From assembly GCF_003334315.1 (NCBI RefSeq), contig NZ_QOWR01000006.1: DNA of 64,000 nt; one strand, given 5' to 3'. This document shows, piece by piece, positions 27,001 through 30,000 of this stretch. Numbering within the stretch: position 1 is the stretch's first letter; every line of letters begins with the position of its first letter. Source of the DNA: Escherichia coli (GTDB lineage Bacteria; Pseudomonadota; Gammaproteobacteria; Enterobacterales; Enterobacteriaceae). The position numbers were made by a program.

Positions 27001-30000
27001 ACCCTTCGCGTTAATAGCCGGTGGCTGCGTCGGTTTTTATGATGGATTCTTTGGCCCGGCTGCCGGGTCGTTTTACGCGCTGGCCTTCGTTACGCTGTGC
27101 GGATTTAACCTCGCCAAAGCCACGGCTCACGCCAAATTACTCAACGCAACGTCAAACATTGGCGGTCTGCTGCTGTTTATTCTCGGCGGCAAAGTGATTT
27201 GGGCGACGGGCTTTGTCATGCTGGTGGGGCAGTTCCTCGGCGCGCGCATGGGTTCACGGCTGGTGTTGAGCAAAGGACAAAAGCTGATCCGCCCGATGAT
27301 TGTTATCGTCTCGGCGGTGATGAGTGCCAAATTACTTTACGATAGCCACGGACAGGAGATCCTCCACTGGTTGGGGATGAACTAATGAACAGTACACACC
27401 ACTATGAGCAGTTGATTGAAATTTTTAATAGCTGCTTTGCCGATGAATTTAATACCCGTCTGATTAAAGGCGACGACGAACCGATCTATCTTCCTGCTGA
27501 TGCGGAAGTACCGTATAACCGAATTGTCTTTGCCCACGGCTTTTATGCCAGCGCAATTCATGAGATTTCGCACTGGTGTATTGCCGGAAAAGCGCGCCGT
27601 GAGCTGGTTGATTTCGGCTACTGGTATTGCCCGGATGGGCGTGATGCCCAAACGCAAAGCCAGTTTGAAGATGTTGAAGTGAAGCCGCAGGCACTCGACT
27701 GGTTGTTCTGTGTGGCGGCGGGATATCCGTTTAACGTCAGTTGCGACAATCTGGAAGGCGACTTCGAACCGGATCGTGTGGTGTTTCAACGGCGGGTACA
27801 TGCGCAGGTGATGGAGTATCTGACAAATGGCATTCCCGAGCGTCCGGCACGCTTCATTAAAGCACTACAAAATTATTATCACACGCCGGAACTTACGGCG
27901 GAACAGTTCCCGTGGCCGGAAGCGCTCAACTGAAGCCGGTGCCACGTTTTACAATGAGGAAAGAAGATGATCGCGGAGTTTGAATCACGCATTCTGGCAT
28001 TAATCGACGGTATGGTTGACCATGCCAGTGATGATGAGTTGTTTGCCAGTGGGTATTTGCGTGGCCACCTGACATTAGCCATCGCAGAACTGGAAAGTGG
28101 TGATGACCACTCCGCTCAGGCGGTGCATACGACCGTTAGCCAGAGTCTGGAAAAAGCCATTGGTGCCGGTGAATTGTCGCCGCGTGACCAGGCGCTGGTG
28201 ACCGATATGTGGGAAAACCTGTTTCAGCAGGCGTCACAGCAGTAAGTTGCGGCGTCTGGAGCACCATGCCTGATGCGACGCTTATCGCGTCTTATCAGGC
28301 CTACACGTCACACGTAGGTCGGATAAGGCGTTCACGCCGCATCCGGCAAACACTGCGAGAGCAGATTACCCCGCCTTAACCGCTTTACCCTTCAACAATT
28401 TCCGCACCCATAACCGATTCGGGTTTAACGCTGCCAGCGTACTGGCATCCATCGGAATCGGTTCGTCGCTCATCTGCGCCGCCAGAATCTCGGCACACAG
28501 CGGGGCAGAACACAAACCGCGAGAACCTAAAGCCGCAAACATAAAGAGATCGTCAAAAACCGGCGCGCTTACCGCCTCATCTTTCTGCTCCGCCAACGAC
28601 GCATATTCCACGAGTGTTGCCTCATAATCGGGAACATTGCCTACCATTGGCAGATGATCGCGGGTGGCACAACGCACACCGCAGCGCGCCTCTTTATCAC
28701 TGACATCAACCTCTTTTGCCCACTGTGCCTGCGGGAAACAATCAATCAACCGCTGGCGATTCTGCTGCTGATCGTCCTCACTGTACGCCGTATCTTCGCT
28801 GCCGCGATGATAACTGGCACCAATACAATGATGTTGATTCGCCGGATTTTGTGGCGTGAGATAACCGTCATAGCACAGCACCTGCTTCAGCTCTGCCAGT
28901 TCCGGCGTTGTCGGAATATGGCTGACCTGCCCGGCAACCGAATACACCGGGAGAGTCGACGTTTGGCTGAAACGGCTGATTTGATGCCCGTTCGCCAGTA
29001 CCACTACGCTGTGTGTTGCTTGCTGATCTCCTGCAAAATTCAACAACCAACAGTCATCCTTACGGGAAAAATTCTGTAACTGATATTGATAATAAATCTG
29101 CAAACCCTGCTGTTGCGCCAGTTCCAGCACATTACGGGTCAGTTCTGCTGGGCACAGCCAACCACCTTGCGGATAAGTAATGCCGCTGCAATTTGTCGCA
29201 ACGCCCGTAATTTGTTCAACCGCATTTGCCTCAACGGCTACAGCCAGTTCTGCGGGTAAATCCATTGACAACATCTGTGCGATTTTATGCTGGCTTTTCT
29301 CATCCCAGCCTAACTGCGTGACGCCGCACCAGTCATGATCAAATTTAACGGGTAATTGGTCGTAAAACCGACGAGCAAAAGTAAACGCATTAGAGAAAAA
29401 GCGGTTTAGCGCCTCATCGTGTTTGCTTAATAACGGATACAGCGCCCCCTGGCGATTGCCGGAAGCACCCAGTGCGGGGGCCTCATCCGCGCAATAAAGC
29501 GTTACCTGCCAGCCGCGCCGTAATAGCGCCAGCGACAACAACGCGCTGGCAATACCACCGCCGATAATCGCCGCTTCCCGTTTGCTGCTGCCCGTGCGGT
29601 TAAACCACGGCGCGGAGCAGGGGAGCGGTAATGTCTGTTCCATCACCCCGCAAAGCATTTCCCGTTTGCGCCCAAAGCCCTTACGTTTTTGCATCGTGAA
29701 TCCGGCGTCCTGCAAACCGCGGCGGACAAAACCGGCAGACGTAAATGTCGCCAGCGTGCCGCCCGGACGCGCCAACCTTGCCATGGCGTTAAACAGATTT
29801 TGCGTCCACATATCCGGGTTTTTAGCTGGCGCAAAGCCGTCCAGAAACCAGGCATCTACTTTTTGATTTAGCGAATCGTCCAGTTGGCTGGTCAGTTCGT
29901 TAATATCGCCAAACCATAAATCCAGCGTCACGCGGCCTTCATCGAGCAATAAACGATGGCAACCGGGCAAGGGCATTGGCCACTGCGCCTGAAGTTGTTC

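Follow-up and report, generated by a model that had tools for sequence, protein, structure and literature searches.

Introduction

Repetitive extragenic palindromes (REPs) are imperfect palindromes of 30 to 40 nucleotides (nt) that carry a conserved GTAG on the 5' side of the foot and two conserved stem mismatches, and they fall into types y, z1, and z2 (PMC3333891, PMC8266576). Escherichia coli K-12 carries 584 REPs, of which 84 are single (PMC3333891). Others belong to bacterial interspersed mosaic elements (BIMEs). BIME-1 joins z1 and y through a long L linker, often with a site for integration host factor (IHF), and BIME-2 joins z2 and y through a short linker and occurs in tandem copies of variable number (PMC3333891). 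The sequence requirements of TnpA-REP (RAYT) are GTAG plus a bulge (PMC3333891, PMC8266576); in vitro, the protein cleaves and recombines BIMEs, including at the type I site TGCC^TGAT (PMC3333891; carets mark the point of cleavage or junction). Here we describe the REPs in a 64,000-nt stretch of E. coli DNA (contig NZ_QOWR01000006.1, assembly GCF_003334315.1), referred to as the window, in which a first-pass annotation had placed REP/BIME elements at the ends of yfcL, fabB, and dedD.

The window contains five REP units at three loci: A (between yfcL and mnmC), B (after fabB), and C (between dedD and cvpA). We assign all five to the E. coli REP (palindromic unit) family. Loci A and C each hold a single BIME-2-type unit, and the REP of locus B stands alone, z2-like and slightly degenerate. 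We give this reading a probability of about 93%. The elements themselves are already known, long-described features of E. coli.

Identification of the REP units

Sequence reading and a profile scan gave the following units and linkers.

28268-28304, minus (GTAG-bearing) strand: REP A1, type z2, GCCTGATGCGACGCTTATCGCGTCTTATCAGGCCTAC; nhmmer E = 3e-9; predicted hairpin of -21.3 kcal/mol, z = -6.35
28305-28313, no strand: tail-to-tail linker of locus A, 9 nt, ACGTCACAC
28314-28348, plus strand: REP A2, type y, GTAGGTCGGATAAGGCGTTCACGCCGCATCCGGCA; no mismatches to the y pattern; predicted hairpin of -18.2 kcal/mol, z = -4.7
31758-31793, plus (GTAG) strand: REP B1, isolated, GTAGGTCGGAGTAGACGCGCCAGCGTCGCATCCGAC; 81% identity to z2; nhmmer E = 2e-9; predicted hairpin of -19.1 kcal/mol, z = -4.25
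41124-41159, minus strand: REP C1, type z2, GCCTGATGCGACGCTGGCGCGTCTTATCAGGCCTAC; 37 of 37 positions identical to the z2 reference and no mismatches to the pattern; predicted hairpin of -21.4 kcal/mol
41160-41173, no strand: tail-to-tail linker of locus C, 14 nt, GCAGGGGTAGAACC
41174-41208, plus strand: REP C2, type y, GTAGGTCGGATAAGGCGTTTACGCCGCATCCGACA; 94% identity to y and no mismatches to the y pattern; predicted hairpin of -18.8 kcal/mol, z = -5.5

The scan used nhmmer (--max, filters off) on both strands of the 64 kb, with a profile made from the five units. It returned exactly five full-length copies (28268-28304, 28314-28347, 31758-31793, 41124-41159, and 41174-41207), with E values between 2e-10 and 2e-8. 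No sixth full-length copy was found in the window by this search, the next match (E = 0.22) being a partial head at 62622. Pattern searches were set against chance expectations from 100 dinucleotide-preserving shuffles. A z2 pattern with four free loop bases matched exactly at 41124-41159, and the y pattern matched without mismatches at 28314-28347 and 41174-41207; both had a chance expectation of 0.00. A1 was missed by the z2 pattern with its fixed four-base spacing because the loop of this unit has five bases. The loop (TTATC versus TGGC) is also the only difference between A1 and the z2 reference.

We then aligned the units globally with the y, z1, and z2 reference sequences of Durrant et al. 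(PMC11208160). Identity was 100% for C1 and 89% for A1 (both z2), 94% for A2 and C2 (both y), and 81% for B1 (z2). Type z1 was the best match of none of the five, with identities of 65 to 78%. The first-pass annotation had named formal alignment to a REP consensus as the decisive check, and its identification of REPs at 28268-28348, 31758-31793, and 41124-41208 stands by sequence, patterns, nhmmer, and reference alignment (81 to 100% identity). The string that it quoted, GCCTGATGCGACGC...CTTATCAGGCCTAC, occurs at A and C; B carries a single inverted variant, GTAGGTCGGAGTAGACGCGCCAGCGTCGCATCCGAC. Its gene ends likewise agree with the K-12 annotation, and the intergenic lengths equal those of K-12.

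The structural hallmarks of REPs were shared by all five units. Read from head to tail, each ends in CCTAC, which is GTAGG on the REP strand; A1, for example, reads GCCTGATGCG...GGCCTAC on the plus strand. Each unit (35 to 37 nt) is predicted to fold as a hairpin of -18.2 to -21.4 kcal/mol (z = -4.25 to -6.35) with an internal loop, or bulge, between the outer and inner stems, and none of 200 shuffles folded as well. Fold prediction gives the units hairpin potential on both strands. The sequences hold what TnpA-REP requires, GTAG and a bulge. All units are extragenic, lie just 3' of genes, and show no overlap with coding sequence.

The units are also dispersed in the way expected of a repeat family. 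Across 5,426 complete E. coli genomes, which served for all strain comparisons, the stretch at 27900-31900 was present in every genome and 100% identical to many strains. The median number of megablast places per genome was at least 24 for the query with locus A, at least 15 for that with locus C, and at least 30 for an allele of locus A with the y unit only; these counts are lower bounds from a search that requires a 28-nt exact word and reports no more than 40 pieces, a ceiling reached in many records. Among about 100,000 species representatives, the exact z2 36-mer occurred in 28 stretches. One was in Pseudocitrobacter vendiensis and 27 were in Escherichia (E. albertii, E. coli, E. whittamii, and two further species), and for this reason the 36-mer is a good genus-level marker. 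The first-pass annotation had taken the REPs as a sign of an E. coli-type genome, which holds at the level of the genus; the window itself is 100% identical to E. coli chromosomes.

These results bear on an alternative in which the hairpins only look like REPs and are chance palindromes or ordinary Rho-independent terminators of individual genes. GC-rich hairpins immediately 3' of genes would suit such an explanation, but a T run follows none of the five units, and separate intrinsic terminators stand downstream at B and C. A match of 81 to 100% to the consensus, many copies per genome, and a chance expectation of 0.00 are likewise hard to reconcile with it. The consensus alignment and the evidence of dispersal refute it in our view, and we hold it to be barely conceivable.

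Comparison with described classes

In the Bachellier/Gilson nomenclature (PMC3333891), loci A and C correspond to BIME-2. In each, a z2 unit is followed, in inverse orientation and tail to tail, by a y unit after a short linker (9 nt at A and 14 nt at C), and it was by this shortness that the linkers were judged BIME-2-like. Locus C shares two further properties with BIME-2, a tandem copy number (of a 91-bp unit) that varies between strains and published gyrase cleavage. The window differs from typical BIME-2 in having only one unit per locus, and locus A differs in having no published gyrase cleavage site.

BIME-1 (RIB/RIP) resembles the loci in its y unit, its inverted-pair architecture, and its location 3' of genes. 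Loci A, B, and C nevertheless contain neither a z1 unit nor a long L linker, and the IHF consensus is missing: the motif WATCAANNNNTTR was absent from both strands of all three intergenic regions. With no z1 unit, linkers of 9 and 14 nt, and no IHF consensus, we rejected BIME-1 and its IHF association for these loci. IHF binding belongs to the L linker of BIME-1 (PMC3333891), and this function is therefore not transferable to loci A, B, and C. The IHF binding proposed in the first-pass annotation accordingly falls. We also considered the long hairpin of a REPIN (Bertels and Rainey) and rejected it: the partners differ in type (z2 and y), and when the whole spacers are folded to minimum energy, every REP forms a hairpin of its own.

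At locus B, the z2 + y pair of BIME-2 is absent and there is a single unit. The label REP/BIME given to all three gene ends consequently holds as BIME for A and C only, B being a lone REP. Like other isolated REPs (PMC3333891), B1 is a single GTAG-footed, bulged hairpin. It departs from them in mixing a y-like outer stem with a z2-like core, in an altered bulge, and in strain-variable repeats of its foot and of half the REP. The inner stem and loop are those of z2, and the outer stem is the y-like GTCGGA/TCCGAC, which differs from z2 by two compensatory pair changes. The bulge reads GTAG in place of TAAG. Elsewhere in the genomes, megablast found no copy of B1 identical over at least 28 nt (median, 1 place).

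Genes and terminators around the loci

The neighboring genes were placed by the K-12 annotation.

27967-28245, plus strand: yfcL
28366-30432, minus strand: mnmC
30531-31751, plus strand: fabB
32016-33194, plus strand: yfcJ
31827-31853, plus strand: intrinsic-terminator-like hairpin 3' of the fabB REP, AAAAGGGAACC-TGAT-GGTTCCCTTTTT, 11 pairs in the minimum-energy fold of 31752-31870
ending at 41114, plus strand: dedD
41373-41861, plus strand: cvpA
41243-41278, plus strand: intrinsic terminator 3' of the dedD BIME-2, a 12-pair stem followed by TTTATTG

The genes yfcL and mnmC are convergent, with a spacer of 120 bp (as in K-12), 81 bp of which is occupied by locus A. A1 lies 22 nt from the stop codon of yfcL, and A2 lies 17 nt from that of mnmC on the opposite strand. 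A terminator scan found no intrinsic terminator in locus A. The tandem genes fabB and yfcJ are separated by 264 bp, again as in K-12, and B1 begins 6 nt past the fabB stop codon. The hairpin downstream of fabB was taken from the fold; the simple terminator scan missed it, probably since its T run is absorbed into the stem. With its flanking A and T runs, the predicted hairpin is potentially a bidirectional terminator. The spacer between the tandem genes dedD and cvpA is 258 bp, the same as in K-12, and C1 begins 9 nt past the dedD stop codon. Upstream of cvpA, ACGCAAACGTTTTCTT at 41301-41316 resembles a PurR box and may be the PurR operator of the cvpA-purF operon. If so, the dedD BIME-2 and its terminator stand just upstream of a separately regulated promoter.

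Variation between strains

The three loci vary between strains in different respects: the number of 91-bp units at C, the number of REPs at A, and a foot repeat at B. Allele frequencies given below are approximate, as the search joins split alignments.

Locus C varied in spacer length. SB0258h1 has a dedD-cvpA spacer of 167 bp; the spacer is 258 bp long in the window and in K-12, CEC13004 and an O157:H7 strain share a length of 531 bp, and that of strain 16843 extends to 804 bp. A REP scan assigned these spacers 0, 1, 4, and 7 units, respectively. The comparison of copy number between strains that the first-pass annotation had suggested thus gave the expected variation at this spacer. The repeated element is the following.

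41127-41217, no strand: 91-bp BIME-2 unit, in one of six equivalent registers, with a TTGCC direct repeat at its boundaries

It consists of z2 (36 nt), GCAGGGGTAGAACC (14 nt), y (34 nt), and AGCCGTT (7 nt), and the GCAGGGGTAGAACC linker was conserved in every copy of the multicopy arrays of other strains. In SB0258h1 the empty allele reads TCTTGCC^CGATGCC, which shows that the TTGCC direct repeat bounds the 91-bp unit. With the unit read in one register, its left break would be the TnpA-REP type I site, TGCC^TGAT. The locus C query aligned as a single place in 4,026 of the 5,426 genomes, and about 26% did not align in this way. Because every sampled exception broke at the first base of the REP, we infer that the dedD-cvpA spacer has two or more BIME units in roughly one genome in four.

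Directly after the 91-bp unit, the flank at 41218-41237 (CGATGCCGCAAAGGCAT) can form a 5-pair hairpin. Together with the preceding TTGCC, this flank resembles a degenerate REP head (TTGCCCGATGCC versus TTGCCTGATGCG). Given this head-like flank, the empty allele could be a deletion between two head-like sequences and not a never-occupied site.

At locus A, sampled strains had either the one-unit allele or a y-only allele, that is, two REPs or one, and more than one BIME unit was not seen among them. In CH10982, the yfcL-mnmC spacer is 55 bp long and contains only a y-like palindrome without GTAG. A rough estimate from the ranking of alignment spread puts the y-only allele at a few percent of genomes.

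At locus B, the fabB REP of UPEC_U013 is canonical, GTAGGTCGGATAAGACGC... In other strains, one to four partial copies of the foot (GTAGGTCGGA/GTAGTCGGA) precede the full REP, and the fabB-yfcJ spacers with such copies are 10, 19, 28, or 37 bp longer than that of the window. The allele of the window and K-12 (GTAGGTCGGA-GTAG-ACGC) appears to have arisen from an expanded allele by slippage. The 9-bp GTAGTCGGA repeat 5' of the REP varies between strains, and in PapRG-06-5 the spacer repeats the 3' half of the REP (ACGCGCCAGCGTCGCATCCGACGTT) four times in tandem, with a period of 25 bp. The 9-bp foot repeat and the 25-bp half-REP tandem are small minisatellites of REP parts, right after an essential gene.

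Origin of the units and their variants

The origin of the units and the changes in their number would be explained by TnpA-REP, by replication slippage, or by both. A narrower idea is that the length variants (one to four 9- to 10-bp GTAG(G)TCGGA foot repeats at fabB, the fourfold 25-bp tandem of PapRG-06-5, and the gain and loss of the 91-bp unit bounded by TGCC^TGAT at dedD-cvpA) are natural traces of a TnpA-REP that continues to cut and rejoin DNA near GTAG, and not of plain slippage. We think this improbable. If it were true, variants within 15 nt of a stop codon could tune the output of fabB and dedD between strains.

A broader alternative holds that the elements are purely selfish, RAYT-mobilized DNA (REPIN-like doublets) with no host function here, their 3' position reflecting tolerated insertion. 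It accounts for the presence/absence and copy-number polymorphism, the precise unit boundaries, the flanking TTGCC repeat, and the existence of strains that lack the elements. A further point in its favor is that TnpA-REP cleaves TGCC^TGAT in vitro (PMC3333891), for in one of its registers the 91-bp unit is bounded on the left by this site. Against it, the units of each pair differ in type and fold on themselves, with no single long REPIN hairpin, REPs have published effects on termination and decay at other loci, and gyrase cleavage has been reported at C. Selfish mobilization is moreover compatible with host-level effects and does not exclude them. We lean against the purely selfish reading while regarding it as a real possibility.

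IS621 target sites

The natural target of IS621 is the 11-nt ATCAGGCCTAC, with a CT core (PMC11208160). The window carries this sequence in both of its z2 units.

28294-28304, plus strand: IS621 target ATCAGGCCTAC in A1, exact match
41149-41159, plus strand: IS621 target ATCAGGCCTAC in C1, exact match

These are the only two occurrences in the window, compared with 0.01 expected by chance. A1 and C1 thus resemble described targets of IS621, a bridge-RNA-guided element of the IS110 family, in carrying the exact natural target; the window differs from occupied strains in having no IS621 at A1 or C1. In EC14, IS621 sits in A1 at GGCCT^AC. The junctions read GGCCT^TGTATT... and ...GTATCT^ACACG, with CT at both.

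A query spanning the A1-IS621 junction was covered by at least 80% in 269 of the 5,426 genomes, and 218 genomes failed to align across the insertion site in A1. From these two counts, IS621 occupies A1 in about 4 to 5% of complete E. coli genomes. The statement of the first-pass annotation that REPs are targets of some insertion sequences is borne out here by the EC14 insertion and by the junction matches.

Gyrase cleavage

The supplement of a Topo-Seq study (table DS3 of Sutormin et al., PMC6379681), which gives BIME-2 intervals in W3110 coordinates, already includes A, B, and C. The intervals 2437498-2437581 (annotated cvpA-dedD), 2446912-2446947, and 2450358-2450437 (PMC6379681) have offsets of 9,414 and 12,860 bp, which are also the distances from C to B and from C to A in the window. 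In K-12 W3110, the numbers of gyrase cleavage sites under the Cfx, RifCfx, Micro, and Oxo conditions were 0, 2, 1, and 0 at cvpA-dedD and 0 throughout at the other two loci (PMC6379681). Locus C may therefore additionally be a weak gyrase site. Gyrase binding, which the first-pass annotation had ascribed to the REPs in general, agrees with the published cleavage at C and lacks a published site at A and B.

These data are relevant to the proposal, made for BIME-2, that the main role of the elements is exerted on DNA, as strong gyrase sites or topological insulators that stand where transcription units end. Gyrase cleavage sites are enriched in BIME-2 elements, y units are cut more often than z2 units, and the BIME-2 gyrase signal rises when transcription is blocked (PMC6379681). 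The two RifCfx sites and the one microcin B17 site at dedD-cvpA fit this proposal. Conversely, A and B had no cleavage site in any of the four conditions, and C had none under ciprofloxacin alone or oxolinic acid (PMC6379681). The strongest gyrase sites are, besides, multicopy BIME arrays (PMC6379681), but the BIMEs of the window are single units. A main role of this kind at the three loci is unlikely in our view.

Possible effects on transcripts

Depending on context, REPs can bring about partial Rho-dependent termination and hold up 3' exonucleases (bioRxiv 10.64898/2026.03.23.713779). About 60% of them are located between convergent genes, an arrangement linked to higher expression of the two genes, and terminal REPs do not generally lengthen mRNA half-life (bioRxiv 10.64898/2026.03.23.713779). 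The mRNA stabilization attributed to the elements by the first-pass annotation is thus a context-dependent effect and not a general one. By analogy with the family, the transcript hairpins of loci A, B, and C would act as structures of the 3' untranslated region (3' UTR) that impede 3'-to-5' exonucleases and give partial, Rho-assisted termination. Because no intrinsic terminator was found at yfcL/mnmC, the REP pair of locus A would probably serve as a shared 3'-end structure for the transcripts of both genes.

According to the summary of Liang et al. (2015) in PMC12306157, REPs within 15 nt of a stop codon stall ribosomes and lower the expression of the upstream gene. The REPs of fabB (6 nt) and dedD (9 nt) lie within the range that this summary gives for the stalling of terminating ribosomes, and for this reason they may slightly reduce expression of the genes upstream.

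Several observations weigh against our reading of the loci as REP-family elements that act in this manner. B1 may be a decaying copy, considering its altered bulge and the lack of another copy identical over at least 28 nt. At B and C, a role of the REPs as terminators or stabilizers is probably redundant because both loci have intrinsic terminators of their own downstream. Finally, strains without a BIME at C and strains without the z2 unit at A exist, and neither is therefore essential.

REP fragments and other sequences in the window

The convergent yfbS-yfbR spacer (62617-62648 in the window) contains only a 14-nt z2 REP head, GCCTGATGCGACGC, at 62622-62635. In 5,414 of the 5,426 complete genomes this spacer is 26 bp longer and contains the REP-derived GCCTGATGTCGCATCCGGCGCTTATT once; VCSW7 contains it twice, and the spacer of the window lacks it. 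The allele of the window was found in none of the 5,426 complete genomes, the best match being 98.7% identical and in two pieces. Slippage between GCCTGATG direct repeats is the simplest reading of this allele, and it may instead be an assembly or laboratory artifact in the source. In ES2, IS1A is inserted in the REP-remnant spacer between yfbS and yfbR. A further palindrome, TGCCGGATGCAATCTCCGGCA, lies at 63299-63319 in the spacer upstream of yfbR and resembles the outer stem of a y REP without its interior. Allowing for the 26-bp yfbS-yfbR deletion, it corresponds to an 18-bp "BIME-2" fragment of the Topo-Seq table.

An Rfam scan of the whole window at the gathering threshold had no match at loci A, B, or C. 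Its sole match was a tRNA gene at 5757-5828 on the minus strand (63.4 bits). About 60 bp from this gene, the tail-like CTTATTCGGCCTGC at 5687-5700 was considered as a REP; it has two mismatches and no palindrome, and we judged it to be a chance occurrence.

Significance

As the elements are long described, finding them here is of little significance in itself, and its practical value lies in annotation. The dedD-cvpA and fabB-yfcJ spacers are length-polymorphic markers between strains. The analysis also corrects a common overgeneralization: IHF binding is a property of BIME-1 and not of BIME-2-type loci such as these. For the genome at hand, the REPs account for three GC-rich 3'-UTR hairpins and flag two landing sites of the bridge recombinase element IS621.

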